This document shows positions 6,286 through 63,566 of a stretch of DNA of 64,000 bases, piece by piece; within the stretch, counting starts at the first letter, position 1, and each line of letters begins with the position of its first letter. Origin of the DNA: an archaeon GW2011_AR20 (GTDB taxonomy: Archaea; Nanobdellota; Nanobdellia; SCGC-AAA011-G17; GW2011-AR20); assembly GCA_000830315.1 (NCBI GenBank), contig CP010426.1:588663-652662 (forward strand), written 5' to 3'. A model generated the notes under the pieces. It was not told the DNA's origin and ran no database searches. It worked only from the letters and a program-made list of their open reading frames with translations. The position numbers were made by a program, and so were the translations under genes.

Positions 6286-6405
6286 TGCTCCGTCCGGGAT
6301 TTGAACCCGGGTCTCGGCCTTTCTTCTCTTTGCTTTATTTTGCTGAAGCTTTTTTTTAAAACTTCCTCGAAAGGGCCGAATCCTTGGCCGCTAGACTAAC
6401 GGAGC
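6286..6405 (-). tRNA. tRNA-Glu (anticodon UUC) with an intron of about 45 nt after position 37
   Basis: Manual fold. Acceptor GCTCCGT/ACGGAGC, anticodon stem CGGCC/GGCCG, loop CTTTCG, T-arm CCGGG-TTCAAAT-CCCGG, discriminator A. Confidence 0.75.
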
Positions 6406-6409
6406 AATG

Positions 6410-6515
6410 TGGGCCTGAGCGGATTTGAACCGCCGACCACGCGTGCTCTTAGCTTACTAATGCACCTGGCATCGTCATATAAGACGCGTGCTCTACCAGG
6501 CTAAGCTACAGGCCC
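6410..6515 (-). tRNA. tRNA-Ile-like with anticodon UAU and an intron of about 32 nt
   Basis: Acceptor GGGCCTG/CAGGCCC, Ile-like D-arm GTAGCTTAGCCTGGTAGAGC, anticodon stem CGCGT/ACGCG, loop CTTATA followed by the intron. The loop nucleotides CTTA pair with TAAG at the intron 3' end, which is a canonical h' helix. It lies 4 nt from tRNA-Glu. Confidence 0.65.
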
Positions 6516-24295: not shown

Positions 24296-25171
24296 TTAAG
24301 CGGTTTCAATTAGCTTTTTCCTAGTTTCATAACTCTGTGCTGCTCTTTCTAAGGCATTTTTTCTTATTGAAGCTATTAAAGAGTCATTTTTAGCAATTTC
24401 TTCTAAATTCAAGCCTGAAAAATTTTTTGCGAAATGCATCCGACCAGCGCCACACGAGTCAGGCAAGATACCGCTCCCAGTAGACAGACTAGACCTATCG
24501 CGGACGAGCCCACGAAGACCGCTTCTTGTAGTATATAAATTTCTATCCCCTTCTTTATCTAATTCATATGGGAATCCTGTTTTTAACAATCCAGGGTCTT
24601 TAGAGCTGAATTTTCCGTCGCCTTTGCTTAATACAGGAACTTGAGTTACTATTGTTAATCCGTCTTTATTAAAATCTAACCTTAAGCCATATTCATAATC
24701 ATCGTCCTTGACAACATCCATTAGTCCTTCAACAACAAATGGAACTTCCAAATCTATGTTTAAAAAATAAGATTTAACCTGATCTCTAAGATGCTGCCAT
24801 GATTTTGGATTAATTGCTCTTTGCGGATAATTTGTAAATCCGGAGTCTTCATAGGTGTTATTAACATCTTCTAATTTACCTTTGCTTAAGAATAACTCGC
24901 TTATAAACTGGGTCATCGGAATAATATCTTCATTGCTTAATTCCCTAATAATATTAGACAAAGCTGTTTTATAAAAGAAATTGCAGCCTTTAATATCCCC
25001 CTGTTTAGCCTTAAAATCTAATTCTGGAATTATAACAGCTGTTCCTTGGTATCTTTCCCTAAGTAATTTCAAAGCATCCCTTGTTAAATTATAATCGTAT
25101 CTGGCTAAAAATATGGTCGGGTTTTTCTCTATTAATTCAGTCTCTAAAATGTCGTTGTACTTTGCTTTCAT
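24296..25171 (-). CDS. Uncharacterized protein, paralog A of a two-member family (the other copy is at 53920..54786)
   Basis: Clear similarity to ORF 53920..54786 (TYED.G...P...NP..W..LR.QVKS.F, PFV..GLM.VVK, G..L..KTGFP). Contains a GC-rich segment of about 100 nt near its 3' end. Confidence 0.6.
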   Translation of the reverse strand: MKAKYNDILETELIEKNPTIFLARYDYNLTRDALKLLRERYQGTAVIIPELDFKAKQGDIKGCNFFYKTALSNIIRELSNEDIIPMTQFISELFLSKGKLEDVNNTYEDSGFTNYPQRAINPKSWQHLRDQVKSYFLNIDLEVPFVVEGLMDVVKDDDYEYGLRLDFNKDGLTIVTQVPVLSKGDGKFSSKDPGLLKTGFPYELDKEGDRNLYTTRSGLRGLVRDRSSLSTGSGILPDSCGAGRMHFAKNFSGLNLEEIAKNDSLIASIRKNALERAAQSYETRKKLIETA

Positions 25172-25301
25172 TTTGATATCTGAATGAAGGAAATTAACAA
25201 TTATATAAAGCTTTCCGTATTATATTACTTTCAAGTGATTATAAGATAACTAGCAAATTTTTACACAAATATTAATAATCTTTTCTAACTTGTAATATAA
25301 C

Positions 25302-29458: not shown

Positions 29459-29545
29459 GGGGCTATGGTCTAGCTTGGCTATGATATACGCTTAGGGACA
29501 AAAGCTGAAAAGCGTATGACCCCAGTTCAAATCTGGGTAGCCCCA
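29459..29545 (+). tRNA. Intron-containing tRNA of unresolved isotype (Val-like D-arm). Anticodon is GAA if the 13-nt intron lies after position 33, or AGG if it is canonical 37/38.
   Basis: Acceptor GGGGCTA/TAGCCCC + A. D-arm GTCT-AGCTTGGCTA-TGAT. Eight-bp continuous helix ATACGCTT/AAGCGTAT around a 15-nt loop. T-arm CCCAG-TTCAAAT-CTGGG. Confidence 0.55.
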
Positions 29546-30910: not shown

Positions 30911-31018
30911 TGCAGTAGCCGGGATTTGAACCCGGGTCGATGCCTTTTTGCTTTTGATTAAACTTTTTCTCAAAAGTTTATTGGCAAGGCACCATACTAA
31001 CCACTATACTACTACTGC
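30911..31018 (-). tRNA. tRNA-Gly (anticodon GCC) with an intron of about 36 nt
   Basis: Acceptor GCAGTAG/CTACTGC + A, anticodon stem GTGCC/GGCAT, loop TTGCCA | intron, T-arm CCGGG-TTCAAAT-CCCGG. Confidence 0.7.
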
Positions 31019-44646: not shown

Positions 44647-44713
44647 TTTAGCTCAGTTTATCCTATAAAATCCTGTTTTATAAATCTTTCGGTTTGTAAC
44701 TACTTTAAAGTTA

Positions 44714-45022
44714 TTATTTTAATTTGAAACCCAAATATTTCTCAATTAAGAGGAATCTTGATACACTATAACCTCCACTATAATGCCATACTCCCCTGTC
44801 TTTATCTCCAAAATAATATACTTTCTCAGCAATAGTTCCCGGGTATGGGCATATTTCTATTTTTTGAAGTTCCCTATCTAAATCAAAAGTTAATTTATAT
44901 TCAAATTTTTTAGTTTTCCAGCTTATTATGTCATTTTTTTCAAATGAATTTTTTAGTCTAGCAAACTCTCTTCCATACATTTCTAATGCTTTCAATGTTT
45001 TTTCTAATTTTGATTGTGTCAT
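44714..45022 (-). CDS. Hypothetical protein
   Basis: 102 aa. Confidence 0.4.
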   Translation of the reverse strand: MTQSKLEKTLKALEMYGREFARLKNSFEKNDIISWKTKKFEYKLTFDLDRELQKIEICPYPGTIAEKVYYFGDKDRGVWHYSGGYSVSRFLLIEKYLGFKLK

Positions 45023-52159: not shown

Positions 52160-52513
52160 TTAAGCCACTTTTTGTTCTAAACGTTGCACTTTTTTATAAT
52201 CAAAAATATCTTGTTCTATTTCATCAGCTTTAGGCCCCATAATGAAAATATTAACTAAACCACTATCATGCCTTTCTAATTTTACTTCATTTTTCAAGCC
52301 ACGATAAGTGTGGGATACTATCTTATGAAAATCCTTAATAAAATGTAAACCAAATCTTCCAAGTAAATAAACACTTGATTGAATAATTTTATGAATAGTA
52401 CTCAAGTCCTCTTTTGTTAATGTGTTCAATGAGAAGGTTATGCGATTATTATAATTTCCAGTTAACAAACTTGTCTTTTCATTCTCATATTGTATTTCGC
52501 CGTAGGATTTCAT
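52160..52513 (-). CDS. Hypothetical protein
   Basis: 117-aa ORF downstream of the GC-tailed ORF. Confidence 0.35.
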   Translation of the reverse strand: MKSYGEIQYENEKTSLLTGNYNNRITFSLNTLTKEDLSTIHKIIQSSVYLLGRFGLHFIKDFHKIVSHTYRGLKNEVKLERHDSGLVNIFIMGPKADEIEQDIFDYKKVQRLEQKVA

Positions 52514-52518
52514 TTTTT

Positions 52519-53130
52519 TTAAACTTCAAAATTTTTGCGCGATTCACGCACCCCGAGACCCCCATTCGAGTAAAAGGGACTCCCCCTACAGTTGAGGTAA
52601 GCCCAGTCCGAGCCAGCGACGAACCTCGCGACACGACCATCTATTGGTGAAAAATAAAAGATTTCCTTACCTCGCAATTTTGTAACTAATCCATCTTCAT
52701 TAATATGCTTAAAACTAGTCCAACCACCCATCATCAAAGGTTTAATTTCTTTGATAGAAGTTGGACTTATTTTATCATTAATAACCTTAAATCCAGATTC
52801 CATGTACCACTTTTCATCATATTTAAAAAATCTATTTCCGAAATATTCAGCCCTCCAAGGAGTCCTTCGATCAATCATTTCATCAAGTAAACCTTGTTTT
52901 TCTAAAGTGCTTACTAAACTGCCTTTTCCATCATAAGTTTTTTTTCTTGAATCTAATAAATCTCTTAAATCTAAAAAATCCCTAATCTCACACATATCTC
53001 CTTTTCTTTCAGCTAATTTTCTTATTTGTTCTTCCCAATCATGCTTGTACAGAACTCTATTTTTAGCCGAATATAAATTAGAATCCCTATCTTTTATTAA
53101 AATATAATCTGCTGGATTTATTTCTGCCAT
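52519..53130 (-). CDS. Hypothetical protein whose last roughly 40 codons are encoded by a sharply GC-rich segment (52519..52640)
   Basis: The ORF is open through the GC island. Codon usage in the tail (cgt, gtc, gcg, ggc, tcg, ctc, ggg, ccc) is alien to the rest of the genome. The tail peptide resembles the C-terminal module of the 24296/53920 paralogs. Confidence 0.45.
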   Translation of the reverse strand: MAEINPADYILIKDRDSNLYSAKNRVLYKHDWEEQIRKLAERKGDMCEIRDFLDLRDLLDSRKKTYDGKGSLVSTLEKQGLLDEMIDRRTPWRAEYFGNRFFKYDEKWYMESGFKVINDKISPTSIKEIKPLMMGGWTSFKHINEDGLVTKLRGKEIFYFSPIDGRVARFVAGSDWAYLNCRGSPFYSNGGLGVRESRKNFEV

Positions 53131-53131
53131 T

Positions 53132-53923
53132 TTACTTTAAACTTTCCCAGGTTAAATTAAACATCTGCTCTAGTGCTGAAGCAAAATAGCTTGTATCTAC
53201 CCATACTCCTGTATCATAACTTTCATGAACCTTGTCATCTTCCATCATCATGAACAGCAATTCCTTTCCATCTACAACGCAGAATCTTGCATTCACCTTG
53301 TCTATATTCCTGACATCTGCATATTTTCTTAATATTTCAACAGTATCCTTATTATCCTTTGTAATGGGGGCAGCTATTCTTACCTTAACATTCTTGAATT
53401 TCTTTAATAATGGAACCAGAATTTCAGATTTTCTCTGCAATCCTTTTGCTGTGGTCATTATTGTAACACTTTTCTGGGCTTTTCTCATCATATCCTCTAA
53501 TAAATCATAAACTTTGCTTCTTCCTTTTAATGCCCCTGATAAATCACTTGGGTCAACTTTCTTAATGCCCTGGTCATGCAATAATTGTAACTCGCGATAT
53601 AATTCTGTTTTTCTTACATCTTCAAGCATCTTAACCTGCTCTTCTGCCTTTCTTGACAATTGTGACTTAACCCTTCTAAGAATTTCCTCGGGTTTAACAG
53701 CCATATACTTTATTGGCTTTCCTAATTTCATTATGATAAAGCCTTTCTTTTCTAGACTTTCTAGAACATCATAGCTTCTTGATCTAGGAACATTGCTAAT
53801 TTCGGATAATTCTCCAGCTGCACTTACACCCCTGCTTAATAATGCCGTCCAGATTTTTACCTCATATTCATTTAAATCAAATGCGCTTCTTAATTTTTTT
53901 AAAAAATCTTCTTTGACTATCAT
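53132..53923 (-). CDS. TrmB-family transcriptional regulator
   Basis: N-terminal TrmB wHTH (LNEYEVKIWTALLSRGVSAAGELSEISNVPRSRSYDVLESLEKKGF) plus a C-terminal TrmB domain. Confidence 0.8.
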   Translation of the reverse strand: MIVKEDFLKKLRSAFDLNEYEVKIWTALLSRGVSAAGELSEISNVPRSRSYDVLESLEKKGFIIMKLGKPIKYMAVKPEEILRRVKSQLSRKAEEQVKMLEDVRKTELYRELQLLHDQGIKKVDPSDLSGALKGRSKVYDLLEDMMRKAQKSVTIMTTAKGLQRKSEILVPLLKKFKNVKVRIAAPITKDNKDTVEILRKYADVRNIDKVNARFCVVDGKELLFMMMEDDKVHESYDTGVWVDTSYFASALEQMFNLTWESLK

Positions 53924-54786
53924 ATTATTCTCCTTAACTTAATATTTCTGACTTGTTTAACAGCTAATTCATATTGTTGTTGTAATTCTTTTTCTTTTTT
54001 TAATCTTTCCTGCTCTAGTTTAGCAACTCGTTCATCGAGACTTCCACTGGAAAAATTTCGTACGACGTTCACCCTGCCATTGACATTCGAGCCAGCCAAG
54101 TTCTCGCCCCTGGCATTGAGGCTCAAGTTCCCGTACCGATAGAACCCGAAGACGCCATTATTGTTGTCTACATATAAAGTTCTGTTTCCTCTTCCTAACT
54201 TGCTTGGAAATCCTGTCTTCTGTAAACCCTTGTCACTGGAATCAAATTTGCCTGTTTTTCTATTTAAAATTGGAACATTATAAACTTCTGTTAATTCATC
54301 TGCATTTAATCCTAGACCATTTTCATAAGTTGAATTTTTAACAACATTCATTAATCCAGTTATTACAAATGGTTTGCTTAATTTAACATTAGGAAAATCA
54401 CTTTTAACCTGCTCCCTTAAGTTTTCCCATAAGTTGGGGTTAACTCCTTCTTTTGGATAAACTATTAATCCCAAATCTTCGTAAGTTGAAGTCGGATCTG
54501 TTAAAGTATCATTTGCTAAAGCAATTTCACTTTCTCTGGCGTTTATTGGATGAACATTTTCTCCTGTAATTTGTCTGTAAGCATTTACAACTGCATTTCT
54601 AAAATAAATATTGCTTCCTCTTACAGGACCTTGAGATTTGATATCTAAAGTAACTAAAGCTGCTTTTGTATCCTTATAATCTGTCAATACTTTCTTAACA
54701 GCTTCTCTTCCAGCTTCATCGTATTGCAATTGAAATATCTGAGGAACATCTACTTTAATTATCGGTTGCCCTTGTGTTGATTTCAT
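53920..54786 (-). CDS. Uncharacterized protein, paralog B of the family at 24296..25171
   Basis: Shares multiple conserved blocks with paralog A. Contains a 110-nt GC-rich segment (about 54058..54170) near its 3' end. Overlaps the trmB start. Confidence 0.6.
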   Translation of the reverse strand: MKSTQGQPIIKVDVPQIFQLQYDEAGREAVKKVLTDYKDTKAALVTLDIKSQGPVRGSNIYFRNAVVNAYRQITGENVHPINARESEIALANDTLTDPTSTYEDLGLIVYPKEGVNPNLWENLREQVKSDFPNVKLSKPFVITGLMNVVKNSTYENGLGLNADELTEVYNVPILNRKTGKFDSSDKGLQKTGFPSKLGRGNRTLYVDNNNGVFGFYRYGNLSLNARGENLAGSNVNGRVNVVRNFSSGSLDERVAKLEQERLKKEKELQQQYELAVKQVRNIKLRRII

Positions 54787-54864
54787 TTTAACTCGAGTAA
54801 ATTAGAAGTAAGTTAGTATTTATAAAGCTTTCGTTTTATGCGCACTTTAAAGTAGTTACATTTA

Positions 54865-55995
54865 TTAAAATTTTAGAACAAATTTCTCAACCAATTTTCC
54901 GGCTTTTCTTCTCTTTTCCTGGTGTTTTTTCAGAAATTTGTTTAATTTCTCTATTAAGATTTGCTTTAGCTCGGATGTTAATAAACTGCCTGATTTATAA
55001 TCATCATAAATTTTTTTTAGTTTTTCATCATTGTCTTCAAAATAAGTCAGCCATTGATAACTTACATCCACGTCCGGATTTCCGCCTTTTTTTCTGTGTT
55101 CTTCAATTGTGCTTCTGCCGCCGGAAAAGGCATATTTCCTGATTTTAGTTTCAATTTCTTTTTCTGAATCTGTGGTTAATATGGAAAGATTATCTTCAGA
55201 ACTTGACATTTTTCCTTCCATGCCTGTTAAGGGAGGCATGAATTTGGAATGAAGGATTGCTGGTTTATGATAACCAAGTTTTTCAACTACATCCCTGCTT
55301 ATTCTAAAATGAACGTCCTGGTCAATTGCCAGAGGAATCAGGCACGGCCTGTTTTCTTTTCTTAGAATATTTGGCAGAAACACAGGAACAGTCTGCATTG
55401 CAGTATAGAAAATGCTCCCTATATTATTTGAATCCGTAAATCCAAATGCTGCTTTAATTGTTGAGAAATTTATTTTTTTTGCTACCTTGATTGCCTCCGG
55501 GTACAGCAAGCCCGCGTGTTTTGTATCTATTAAAAAATGCGTGTTTTTCGGATTAAAGCCAAGTGCAATAACATCCAGCATGTTTTCATAAGTCCATTTC
55601 TGAATCTCATCATAACTCTTGCCTTTAAACAAAAACTTTTCATCGTCTGTGAATTGAAACCATAATTCTGTCTTAAATTTGTCCTGCAGCCATTTTGTAA
55701 ATGACCAAACAGATAAATGCCCTATGTGAATTGGGCCAGAAGGACCGCATCCCGTATATAAAAAGAATTTATTTCCTTTTTCATATTCGTCCAAGCACCA
55801 TTTCAAATCACGCTGGGCAAAGAATATTTTTCTTCTTAAATAAGGGTGCAGATCTTTTGTATATTTTTTTATCCTGCTTAAATCCTCATCGCTTATTTTA
55901 TTAACACCAAATTCTTTTATTAATTTATCATAGTCAATCTTGCCCCTGACTTCATAAGGACCAACACTAAATTCTCTTTTTTGCATATTTAACAA
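54865..55995 (-). CDS. trpS: Tryptophanyl-tRNA synthetase (archaeal/eukaryotic type)
   Basis: HIGH motif GPSGPIHIGH and KMSSS motif. Confidence 0.9.
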   Translation of the reverse strand: MLNMQKREFSVGPYEVRGKIDYDKLIKEFGVNKISDEDLSRIKKYTKDLHPYLRRKIFFAQRDLKWCLDEYEKGNKFFLYTGCGPSGPIHIGHLSVWSFTKWLQDKFKTELWFQFTDDEKFLFKGKSYDEIQKWTYENMLDVIALGFNPKNTHFLIDTKHAGLLYPEAIKVAKKINFSTIKAAFGFTDSNNIGSIFYTAMQTVPVFLPNILRKENRPCLIPLAIDQDVHFRISRDVVEKLGYHKPAILHSKFMPPLTGMEGKMSSSEDNLSILTTDSEKEIETKIRKYAFSGGRSTIEEHRKKGGNPDVDVSYQWLTYFEDNDEKLKKIYDDYKSGSLLTSELKQILIEKLNKFLKKHQEKRRKAGKLVEKFVLKF

Positions 55996-59960: not shown

Positions 59961-62900
59961 TTATCTTATTCTAATAGCTTCCAAATTCTTCGGGGCATTT
60001 GTCTCTATCCTGAACATCTTATGCAAATTACTTGCTAAATCAAGGCAATTAGAATTATCCCCATGCAATAAAATTATTCTTTTCGGTTTTGGATTTAAAT
60101 GCCTGACAAATGATATCAATCTTTCTCTCGTGCTATGTCCTGTAAATCCCCTGATGGCTGCAATCTCCATCTTCAGAGAAATCTGTTTTCCGTCCAAGTT
60201 GAATTCTTTTTCGCCTTCCATTACTCTTCTTCCTAAACTTCCCCTGCCCAGGTAACTTGAAAATATCAATGAGTTTTTTGGATTATCTGATAATTCCTTG
60301 AAATATTCTACTGATGCTCCTCCAACCAGCATTCCGGAAGTCGCTAGAATAATGCAGGGACCAGATTGAATAACTTCCTGCATCTCCTGCCTTGATCCGA
60401 CCCTTTTAAAAACTTCATTCAAGAACGGATTTTGGTCTTTATGAAAAACCATCTTTCTTATGTTTGAATTAAAGAAATCAGGATATGCTGTATGTATTGC
60501 TGTAATATCCCAAACTGTTCCCTGCACGTAAACCGGAATTTTATCAAGCATTCCATTCCTGATCATTTTATCAATTATGACCATTATTTCCTGAGCTCTT
60601 CCTGTTCCCAAGACAGGCATCAAAACCTTTCCCCCTCTTTCAATTGTTTTTTTGATTGTATCAACTAAAATATCTTCTGCCTCTCTTCTGCTGGGGTAAT
60701 TTTCATTGCTTCCGCCGTAAGTTGCTTCCATTATCATTGTCTCTAATCTTGAGAATCTTGTCATAGCCGCGCTTAATAAATTACTTGTCTCATAATTCAT
60801 GTCCCCTGTATAAAGAATATTATGCAGCCCGTTTCCAATATTCAAATGAACCATTGCGCTTCCCAATGTATGTCCTGCATCATAAAATGTAATTCTAATG
60901 TCGGGGGTAATGTCAGTAACCTCATCATATTCTAATGTTATGGAATGCTTGACCATCTCTTTTATATCTGCACTTCCAAAAATTACCTTGCGGTTTTCTT
61001 TCTGGCTTACACTTATGTAATCAAGTGCCATTAAAGCTGCTATATCAAGTCCAGGCTCTGTATAATACACCGGTCCTTTAAAACCCATTTTATACAAGTA
61101 AGGGACAAATGCAGAGTTATGAACAACAACCCCATTAGCTACGAAATTTTGATTAGGTTCTACTTCTATATCAACCAAATAAGGATAAGGATTTTCTTTT
61201 TTCTCTATTTTTGTAATCTTTTGCCATATAACAGGCATTTCAACTAATTTTTTTAATTTATTAATATTATCTTGAGTTTTTAAGATTTTTATTTCTATCA
61301 GTTCATTTAATTTCTTATTCATCATTTCATAATATTTATCTTTTATATCAAAAACTTCCCTATTTTGAACGATTCCATAAGTAGTTTCAATCATTTGAGC
61401 AATATCTTTTCTAGGTAAAGAAATAGATTTTCTTTTTTTAGATATAGAAGAATTATTTTTCTCTTTTAAGTAAGTTAATCTTTCTTCAAGAAGTTCAATT
61501 AATTTATTAATGGTATTTTTATCTGCATAACTATTTCCTTTTCTTCTATACCGATCTAATAAAGCCGCTGGAAAATCGCTTATTTTAAATTCTTTATGGA
61601 CTTTTCCTAAAAATCCCGCATCCATTAAAATTTCTTTTAATTTAATTGAGGAAATAGGAATTATTTCTTTTAAATTCGTATCTCTCAATTTATTAACCAA
61701 GTTTTCTAATTTTAATTTTTTATCAATATGATTAAATCCAATTAAATTATAATACCTTTTAATAGAGTATGAAGAAGCTATATTAACAACCTTGTTTTTA
61801 TAATTTATATTGGATAATATCCCTAGTGTTGATAACATATGTTGTAGTGTTTCTAAAATTTTTTCTTGAGACGATGAAATTGATATGCAATTGTTTACAG
61901 AGCCTTCTGCATCGGCAATTCCTCTTAAAAATGCCCTTATAATATTATTTGAGCTAAAGATAATCTTTTCTGAGATATCTCTTTTTTTATTTTTTCCTAA
62001 AATTCCCTTAAAATTATCTTCAAAAAACTTCACAATGCCCGCATTATTTATTTCAATTATATGAGCATTTTTAGATTTATCCGGATGGTGTTTTAAAATA
62101 GGATCATAATTGAATATATTTTTTATTATATTTTTATATTCTTTTAAACAATCTGTTGACTGGTCAGTTATCCTAAATGTTCTTTCGCTTGCTAGTCCGC
62201 CGTCTCCAGTCATATATCCGGCCACTTGAGCCAATTCTTCATTAATATATTTAGGATAAACTGTCTTATTTATATTATACTTAGCCGCAAAATCATTAAA
62301 ATCAATTCCATAGAATCCTAAAATCTCTTTTAAAGTATTAATGTAAATATGCTTGTTCTTATTTTCCAGGTCAGAAATCAAATTTGTATGTTTTTTCAAA
62401 TGACTTACAATATAATCTTGAGTCCAATTCCTCTCTTTTCTTATAATTTTTAGTTTTTCAACTGCTTCTTGAGGTAATTCCAATCTTTCAAAATATTCCG
62501 GTTCTTTAAGTTCAATTCTTTTAAACTCATTTTCCTGTCCCATGTAACAAGGAATAACCATTCCTTCTCTTAAATTTTCAGCAGTGACTTCTTTAATTTC
62601 TAAATCTTTATCAATAACAAAAAATTTATGGTTTCTAGAAGATCCAATTGTATAATAAGATGTTTTAATTTTATAAATTTCTTTATGCTTTGTATTTTTC
62701 TTATAATTACATTTACCAATAACTCTCTTTCCAGTCTTCCAATCAATTCCAATTAATTTATCCCCTACTTTTATATCATCTATGGGCTTTATAGTTCCAT
62801 TTTCCAAATAAACGGGTGTATTTGGTGGTAAACAATGGTCAGCGTGCGCATGCGTAACAATAATAGCATCTAATTTGTTAATGTCAAATTCAGGGGCGTC

Positions 62901-63566
62901 CAGCATTGGATAAGAATCCTCTGGGTTATCTGCAGCAACATCTACTCCGCAGTCAAGCAATATTCTTGATTCAGGCGTCTGCAATAACAGGCATGATCTT
63001 CCTACCTGCCTTCCTGCCCCAAGAAAACTGATTCTGATCCATTCGTCTTTTTTCTCGTTTGTCCATCCGCCGTAAATTCTTTCACCGACCTTATTCAGGA
63101 ATTTTTTTCTGTAATCATTATGCTCGTATAAAACATCCCTTATTTTGTCTGTGATCTGGGATTTAATCGGGGGAGTTCTCCTGACTAAAGGAATCCAGAA
63201 TGTTTTTCTCTTTATTTCTTTTAATATATCCCCTGATTTTCCAATAGCTAACCCGGGCTTGCTGGCTTCTATTATAACCTTGCTTCTTGAAATATCAAAT
63301 ATGACGTTCGCCAAGCCAGCTTCTTCAGGAATTAATTTTTTAATCTCATTTTCTGCTTTTTCCTCTTCCATTAATAAGCTTTCATGAGGCCTTAACTCAA
63401 TTCTTTTTTTAACAGCTTCTACAATTGTTTTAATAACCTCGGAATTGTCCAAGAAAAATTCCTTGCTCTTGGTATAAAGAATAATATTTGCTCCTTCAAA
63501 TCCAGATTCAACTATGTTTGCGTTCTCTGGTACATACTTTAATACTTCTTTCAAAATTTCATTCAT
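59961..63566 (-). CDS. aCPSF1/FttA (KH-KH-metallo-beta-lactamase-beta-CASP RNA endonuclease) interrupted by an intein of about 573 aa
   Basis: N-terminal KH domains. The MBL motif THAHADH is immediately followed by the intein. The C-extein carries the beta-CASP and MBL motifs (GHTLGSA, ATYGG, LLHGD). Confidence 0.9.
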   Translation of the reverse strand: MNEILKEVLKYVPENANIVESGFEGANIILYTKSKEFFLDNSEVIKTIVEAVKKRIELRPHESLLMEEEKAENEIKKLIPEEAGLANVIFDISRSKVIIEASKPGLAIGKSGDILKEIKRKTFWIPLVRRTPPIKSQITDKIRDVLYEHNDYRKKFLNKVGERIYGGWTNEKKDEWIRISFLGAGRQVGRSCLLLQTPESRILLDCGVDVAADNPEDSYPMLDAPEFDINKLDAIIVTHAHADHCLPPNTPVYLENGTIKPIDDIKVGDKLIGIDWKTGKRVIGKCNYKKNTKHKEIYKIKTSYYTIGSSRNHKFFVIDKDLEIKEVTAENLREGMVIPCYMGQENEFKRIELKEPEYFERLELPQEAVEKLKIIRKERNWTQDYIVSHLKKHTNLISDLENKNKHIYINTLKEILGFYGIDFNDFAAKYNINKTVYPKYINEELAQVAGYMTGDGGLASERTFRITDQSTDCLKEYKNIIKNIFNYDPILKHHPDKSKNAHIIEINNAGIVKFFEDNFKGILGKNKKRDISEKIIFSSNNIIRAFLRGIADAEGSVNNCISISSSQEKILETLQHMLSTLGILSNINYKNKVVNIASSYSIKRYYNLIGFNHIDKKLKLENLVNKLRDTNLKEIIPISSIKLKEILMDAGFLGKVHKEFKISDFPAALLDRYRRKGNSYADKNTINKLIELLEERLTYLKEKNNSSISKKRKSISLPRKDIAQMIETTYGIVQNREVFDIKDKYYEMMNKKLNELIEIKILKTQDNINKLKKLVEMPVIWQKITKIEKKENPYPYLVDIEVEPNQNFVANGVVVHNSAFVPYLYKMGFKGPVYYTEPGLDIAALMALDYISVSQKENRKVIFGSADIKEMVKHSITLEYDEVTDITPDIRITFYDAGHTLGSAMVHLNIGNGLHNILYTGDMNYETSNLLSAAMTRFSRLETMIMEATYGGSNENYPSRREAEDILVDTIKKTIERGGKVLMPVLGTGRAQEIMVIIDKMIRNGMLDKIPVYVQGTVWDITAIHTAYPDFFNSNIRKMVFHKDQNPFLNEVFKRVGSRQEMQEVIQSGPCIILATSGMLVGGASVEYFKELSDNPKNSLIFSSYLGRGSLGRRVMEGEKEFNLDGKQISLKMEIAAIRGFTGHSTRERLISFVRHLNPKPKRIILLHGDNSNCLDLASNLHKMFRIETNAPKNLEAIRIR
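61116..62834 (-). other. Intein with a LAGLIDADG-type homing endonuclease inside aCPSF1
   Basis: Starts with Cys right after HAHADH and ends in VVHN with Ser +1. Internal motifs VAGYMTGDGG and LRGIADAEGS. Coordinates are from frame arithmetic, +/-3 nt. Confidence 0.75.

Follow-up and report, generated by a model that had tools for sequence, protein, structure and literature searches.

How an AT-rich gene comes to end in GC-rich codons that look foreign to its genome is the question raised by ORF C of archaeon GW2011_AR20, a DPANN archaeon whose source genome is an 829-kb contig (829,411 bp). The window analyzed here is a 64-kb stretch of that contig. The ORF C product is identical to a hypothetical protein of the same archaeon (QT11_C0001G0787), and the products of ORFs A, B and C and of the 117-aa ORF next to ORF C matched no Pfam family. 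The initial annotation described a GC island with foreign codon usage at the 3' end of the ORF at 52519..53130 and read it either as a peptide module common to three paralogs or as an embedded structured RNA.

The island exists as described. It comprises the final ~37 codons of ORF C (minus strand), and the GC content of 100-nt segments peaked at 0.62 at about 52536-52635, the top value of the 64 kb and about 4.7 standard deviations above the mean (0.317, sd 0.064). The next peaks, at 24.4 kb and 54.1 kb, fall in ORF A and ORF B, respectively, and no GC island of the window is stronger than the modules in ORFs C, A and B. The earlier statement that every other GC island was an RNA gene applies to the remaining islands (5S rRNA and tRNA genes) but not to the modules of ORFs A and B. 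Codon usage in the tail was indeed foreign. The GC content of third codon positions (GC3) was 0.62 in the island vs. 0.19 in the rest of the gene, and the island had a GC content of 0.58 where the same peptide in host codon usage would have 0.44. The fraction of A was 0.15 in the island vs. 0.39 in the rest of ORF C. GC3 was also higher in the islands of ORF B (0.74 vs. 0.18) and ORF A (0.47 vs. 0.26) than in the rest of these genes. Neither ordinary paralogy nor amino-acid composition accounts for the foreign composition, and copying from a retroelement template does. The ORF C island is very probably the variable region (VR) of a diversity-generating retroelement (DGR) target gene. DGRs are already known in these tiny archaea, and the island is a further example of a kind that is not new. 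The features discussed below are:

52519..53130, minus strand: ORF C, 203 aa, predicted to encode the variable (target) protein of a DGR, with a C-type lectin fold
52546..52632, minus strand: putative VR, with an 87-nt scaffold that five alleles of three genes share base for base
52546..52557, minus strand: IMH-like 3' end of the VR, CTCGGGGTGCGT, with the GGGGT motif, invariant in all alleles
52536..52550, minus strand: weak hairpin after the IMH, TGCGT-GAATC-GCGCA, with a 5-bp stem
52524..52538, minus strand: A-tract/T-tract (A5T4) palindrome, GCAAAAATTTTGAAG, just past the homing site
53920..54786, minus strand: ORF B, 288 aa, whose VR-like island (54063-54156) is internal and precedes a long C-terminal helix
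24296..25171, minus strand: ORF A, 291 aa, with a VR-like island (24429-24520) and a more degenerate IMH-like end

Variation among strains and alleles

The mechanism of DGRs, in which the RNA of a template repeat (TR) is copied by a reverse transcriptase (RT) and the product replaces the VR, is established for DGRs in general. The ORF C island varied as a VR is expected to vary, with hypervariation confined to it in near-identical genomes. The L001 contig aligned with the window over 10,378 bp with 21 differences, all 21 of which were located in 52517-52627 as substitutions at recurrent sites (52562-52627) and a small rearrangement directly after them. The probability of this clustering is ~1e-41 for one pre-chosen 111-nt span. 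The L002 contig also had 21 differences, of which 15 were within the same 70 nt of the VR. Variable sites in the VR were observed from 52558 to 52627. L002 differed from the window at a further five positions inside 25 nt (52225-52249) of the 117-aa ORF, where there is no GC island, and this cluster could be a recombination tract.

The scaffold was carried by ORF C of AR20, L002 and L001, by the second target of L001 and by a target in L006/L007, and the upstream flanks of the scaffold-carrying genes were unalignable. The alignment of these five alleles contained 65 invariant columns (23 G, 21 C, 17 T and 4 A) and 22 variable columns. The variable sites were fixed, and 19 of the 22 were at codon positions 1 (11 columns) and 2 (8 columns), with three at position 3. 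Invariant and variable columns together imply a template with an A content of ~30%, and the mean of related templates was 0.29. Judged from these columns, the allele pattern is what copies of one template would look like if every adenine had been randomised, and the template of the AR20 lineage would read approximately GTCGCAAGGTTCAACGCTAACTCGAACAGGGCTAACCTCAACTGTAAAAGGAATCCCTATAACTCGAATGAGGGACTCGGGGTGCGT. In pattern form, such a template would be GGTTCNNCGCTNNCTCGNNCNGGGCTNACCTCNACTGTNNNNGGANTCCCTNTNACTCG with A at the N positions. At least 24 contigs, drawn from many samples, carry exactly the AR20 allele, and the VRs of L049, L050 and L051 were 100% identical to it. The recurrence of the unchanged allele fits a quiescent or stranded VR.

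Templates and homing-site signals in related loci

The search for homologues of ORF C yielded 21, every one of them from an uncultured archaeon. The initial annotation had asked whether the ORFs of relatives stop before the island; all homologues, down to 28% identity, read through it. Their tails are built on the scaffold G.VA.F.A.S..A.L.C....P..S...LGVR, and each sequence has residues of its own at the intervening positions. Two proteins that are 94-95% identical (P0002 and P0003) nevertheless differ at the hypervariable tail positions. A scan of species-representative genomes detected 41 loci with ORF C homologues, 40 of them in assemblies labelled Nanoarchaeota, Woesearchaeota, Pacearchaeota or archaeon and one on a contig labelled Maribellus. 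A second copy of the tail, the TR, was located 214-2,908 nt downstream of the homologue in 17 of the 41 loci, and 159 of the 162 TR/VR mismatches in these loci were at TR adenines. About 20 loci encode an RT within a few kb (Pfam RVT_1) with the DGR signature GMPLGNxTSQ...YIRYVDDF. Several elements, such as that of L010, serve two or three VRs up to ~8.5 kb apart. The homologue P0018 had no RT within 10 kb. The longest contig listed for an RT relative (P0090) has the length of the P0018 contig, 240,126 bp, which suggests that the two may lie on one contig at a distance of more than 10 kb. Among the 17 template/VR pairs, GC content was 0.33 for the locus, 0.485 for the TR and 0.565 for the VR. 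The non-A template bases were 68% G+C, and the fraction of A decreased from 0.29 in the TR to 0.16 in the VR.

The 3' boundary of the island resembles that of the related VRs, all of which end in ...CTCGGGGTACG, while their matching TRs end in ...CTCGGAATA. The difference between GGGGT in the VR and GGAAT in the TR was universal among related pairs and corresponds to TGGGGT (IMH) vs. TGGAAT (IMH*) in nanoarchaeal DGRs (Paul et al., 2015, PMC4372165). A GC-rich IMH is present at 52546-52557 as judged against these related pairs, the IMH* of the AR20 lineage itself not being among them. GC hairpins followed the VRs of the 17 loci (e.g., GCGCC-GTCA-GGCGC and GCAGC-GAA-GCTGC), often with GAA or 4-nt loops, and the AR20 hairpin is a degenerate counterpart of these. 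It folded as DNA at -4.5 to -5.1 kcal/mol (z=-1.6) vs. -10.9 kcal/mol (z=-2.1) for the hairpin of the active relative L010, and the 5-bp stem was lost in the L001 and L007 alleles. Inverted repeats downstream of the IMH were reported in only 34% of DGRs (PMC5758913).

A palindrome like AAAAATTTT was present not only after the ORF C VR but also after the VRs of ORF B (54049-54062) and ORF A (24416-24430) and after several VRs of relatives. The L001 and L007 alleles, which have a 4-nt deletion, retain AAAAAATTTTGAAG but change the frame, so that the protein ends in ...AQKILK*. Because the palindrome was kept despite the frameshift, the "[RK]NF" ending that the initial annotation had taken for a shared peptide motif is not a peptide motif but mainly a signal at the DNA level. 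The palindrome is probably a cis-acting DNA element of the homing site, and it may extend a cruciform.

Two explanations that do without a retroelement were weighed against these data. An unannotated structured small RNA gene, on either strand, could overlap ORF C or extend it artificially; the GC content of the island is like that of the 5S rRNA and tRNA genes of the same AT-rich window, and small local hairpins are present. These hairpins were not significant, as the folding energy of the island was no different from that of dinucleotide shuffles (MFE z=-0.13 sense and -0.29 antisense). Rfam, the covariance-model scan that had been proposed, gave no match at the gathering threshold and none at E<=1 when the region was searched alone, and ARAGORN found no tRNA at the island. 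Homologous ORFs all cross the island with their scaffold residues conserved, and the changes among alleles follow codon positions 1-2 and are not compensatory. The RNA-gene explanation is already largely refuted, and we give it almost no credence. The part of the initial annotation that called the island a shared coding module fared better, as homologues read through it and keep the scaffold residues in the protein, but it missed the cause, template copying. An ordinary conserved module would owe its GC content to Gly, Arg, Ala and Pro and its variability to point mutations under diversifying selection. In its favor, Gly, Arg, Ala and Ser are abundant in the peptide, and the scaffold residues are conserved in the protein. 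Host codons, however, fall well short of the observed GC and GC3 contents, and genes with non-aligning flanks carry one and the same 87-nt nucleotide scaffold. Moreover, 12-15 substitutions per 70 nt contrast with zero across the other ~10 kb, the invariant columns are nearly without A (4 of 65), and adenine-specific templates exist beside homologues. An ordinary module is very improbable.

ARAGORN and Rfam together detected a 5S rRNA gene and five tRNA genes in the whole window. Four of the tRNA genes contain introns of 18-50 nt (6286-6405, 6410-6515, 29459-29545 and 30911-31018); Rfam found all four and ARAGORN in bacterial mode none. Another gene of the window with an intervening element encodes a 1201-aa beta-CASP/KH RNase (59961-63566) with an intein that contains a LAGLIDADG endonuclease domain, a call based on the precomputed Pfam families of the identical gene in L049 and L050.

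ORFs A and B form a second family of lectin-fold targets; their islands are its VRs and would need separate templates. ORFs A and B are paralogues with 41% identity, and BLASTP detected no similarity of either to ORF C. The claim of three paralogs with a common ~40-residue tail module was correct in that islands exist in ORFs A and B, but these two proteins are not similar to ORF C, nor is the module a tail in them, as ~45 residues of predicted helix come after it. ORF C shares a fold and a mechanism with ORFs A and B, not a sequence. The model of ORF B (pLDDT 75) matched lectin folds including TvpA and AvpA and contained a long helix (residues 250-287) after the VR. The scaffold of this family is G.RR..R....L.L.A....LA.S...GRV..VKNF, with hypervariable positions between. 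A nucleotide alignment of the three islands contained only ~40% invariant columns, and the possibility that they are copies of one template was rejected.

Homologues of the A/B family provided further detail. A close pair (P0146 and P0148) had 10 of 21 differences in the island. The other 11 were in a second patch at residues ~64-97 (window ~54496-54597), which is not GC-rich; either recombination or a second variable surface could account for this patch. A template and two RVT_1 ORFs lie behind the homologue P0150, and the two ORFs resemble the halves of a single split RT gene. The ORF B island was identical in all close strains and thus gives no sign of current rewriting as far as these sequences indicate. 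An element of ~48 nt, TTTATAAAGCTTTCG...ACTTTAAAGT, is present upstream of ORF A (25202-25249), one other gene (44677-44724) and ORF B (54819-54866). The element resembles a common archaeal promoter (TATA/BRE-like palindrome), and ORFs A and B may therefore be co-regulated.

Source of the AR20 variable regions

We infer that the AR20 VR was written, formerly or still, by a DGR-type element. The 64-kb window contained no TR in an adenine-tolerant scan and no RT motif in a six-frame scan, and repeat finding in the window detected the promoter-like elements only. The scaffold pattern had no match in a genome contig collection that does not include AR20 itself and none in viral contigs; it matched two loci in metagenome contigs, both of which were another VR and not a template. 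Among the best 120 of more than 7,800 relatives of a related RT, none was from AR20. A template from the metagenome of L007 (L151) was considered for the ORF A VR and rejected, as comparison by eye revealed too many non-adenine mismatches.

The region directly after ORF C is polymorphic among strains (window 52160-52518 vs. L001 10607-12895). In L001, ORF C is followed by an ORF of 519 aa and by another target of the ORF C family, which has a VR of its own; the contig ends inside this second target. AR20 and L002 have the 117-aa ORF instead. A strain-variable DGR cassette may have its edge here. The L001-type cassette is absent after ORF C in AR20, which leaves two options for the AR20 VR, a remote (trans) target or a stranded one.

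A stranded VR would be a fossil, written by the DGR of an ancestor and then frozen and inherited after the AR20 lineage had lost template and RT. We consider this a serious possibility, at somewhat less than even probability. It is consistent with the absence of both TR and RT from the 64-kb window, the 117-aa ORF in place of the L001 cassette region, the identity of the AR20 allele across many samples and the weakness of the hairpin after the IMH. L002, however, combines the AR20-type downstream flank with a different VR allele, which indicates that rewriting or allele exchange has happened in this arrangement. In addition, the other ~765 kb of the AR20 genome lie outside the analyzed sequence, and remote targets are documented for DGRs (PMC5758913).

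The related templates contained an additional feature that bears on how a template RNA may be processed. Ten of them carry an insert of 18-36 nt, CUCG-AAA-[stem-loop]-CGAG-NN-N, just before the IMH*, at these approximate positions:

L005, ~5952
L010, ~10836
L014, ~13550
L015, ~4224
L016, ~13382
L017, ~1456
L019, ~11475
L054, ~11129
L152, ~383
L153, ~2682

Sixteen cognate VRs lacked the insert with identical boundaries, leaving a junction of CTCG, two mutated A's and T or C. One VR of L016 keeps the insert and another VR of the same element is without it. The central helix of the insert (CUCG:CGAG) and its 5' bulge (AAA) resemble those of a bulge-helix-bulge (BHB) motif, defined here by a 4-bp central helix, 3-nt bulges 3' of each strand and flanking helices, with cuts after the second bulge nucleotide; this geometry was verified on the textbook BHB of the tRNA-Gly intron in the window (30911-31018). 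The segment absent from the VRs starts behind the second bulge A and stops two nt past CGAG, and in all 16 VRs its boundaries coincide with the archaeal BHB cut positions. The central helix was invariant and the inner stem covaried among the ten templates (UCU/AGA, UCUU/AAGA, UCUUGU/ACAAGA, UUUAC/GUAAA and UUUA/UAAA). The outer helix was weak or absent, and RNAalifold supported only the invariant central helix. The agreement of boundaries suggests that the template RNA may be spliced at the BHB-like insert before reverse transcription; a rival explanation is that the RT jumps over the hairpin and the insert is lost from the VRs in that way. Viral loci that matched the insert motif had no DGR RT motif in the loci inspected and were taken as chance matches. 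The literature searched contained no mention of BHB together with DGRs, with Paul et al. (2017, Nat Microbiol) outside that search.

A broader reading combines these observations. The three AR20 VRs, which belong to two target families, would stand alone and be serviced in trans by a strain-variable DGR cassette, located in L001 directly after ORF C, and the BHB intron of the template would be removed by the tRNA-splicing machinery before reverse transcription. We propose this reading tentatively and regard it as rather unlikely. As part of the same reading, CTCG-NN-T in the ORF C VR (52564-52570) would mark where an RNA splice junction had been copied back into DNA, which is likewise doubtful.

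Predicted mechanism and relation to known systems

The VR of ORF C is located at or near the 3' end of the ORF within a C-type lectin fold. ORF C would thus encode a small C-type-lectin-fold protein whose last ~30 codons form a variable ligand-binding surface. A dedicated RT is predicted to reverse-transcribe the TR RNA with misincorporation opposite template adenines, and the cDNA would replace the VR, guided by the GC-rich IMH (CTCGGGGTGCGT) at its 3' end, with the hairpin and the A/T palindrome past the IMH as probable further guides. The non-adenine bases of the template (~68% G+C) would be copied faithfully and its ~30% adenines randomised. Faithful copying of GC-rich non-A bases together with randomised adenines would leave a VR that is A-poor, GC-rich and "foreign" in its codons within a 32% GC genome, so that the composition of the island is a by-product of the templating chemistry and a GC-rich scaffold.

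The closest known systems are the DGRs of Nanoarchaeota (Paul et al., 2015, Nat Commun, PMC4372165). They likewise occur in DPANN hosts, pair a GGGGT IMH with a GGAAT IMH*, have GC hairpins with GRA/GAA loops inside or just past the target gene, include multiple cassettes as well as "fragmentary" VRs that lack an RT of their own, and have target proteins without a Pfam family. Unlike them, the AR20 window contains VRs only, with no RT or TR, and its hairpin is degenerate; the AR20 targets (203 aa and ~290 aa) belong to other sequence families. The nanoarchaeal variable protein AvpA (PDB 5IOO; Handa et al., 2016, PMC5006420) has a sequence identity of ~9-10%. ORF C is structurally closer to TaqVP of Thermus aquaticus (PDB 5VF4), a bacterial protein of 381 aa with 9% identity, than to AvpA. 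The prototype DGR of Bordetella phage BPP-1 (Mtd/TR/Brt/Avd; PMC5758913) also has a VR at the 3' end of a lectin-fold gene, a GC-rich IMH, adenine-specific mutagenesis and a downstream inverted repeat. It is, however, a compact phage cassette in which the target adjoins TR and RT, and the present analysis identified no avd-like gene. A bacterial parallel for the remote relationship that we infer for AR20 is TvpA of Treponema denticola with its remote targets.

With this reading, three "hypothetical proteins" of a reference DPANN genome become predicted hypervariable ligand-binding proteins, and a compositional anomaly that was otherwise open to misannotation as an RNA gene or as horizontal transfer is explained. 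The signs used here amount to a recipe for detecting stranded or remote DGR targets before an RT is known: a patch rich in GC and poor in A where a gene ends, a GGGGT-type end and site-restricted variation between strains. If confirmed, the BHB-like insert, present in templates and precisely missing from VRs, would link archaeal RNA splicing to the diversification of proteins by retroelements. The finding fits the idea that host-dependent, genome-reduced archaea invest in fast-evolving surface and interaction proteins.
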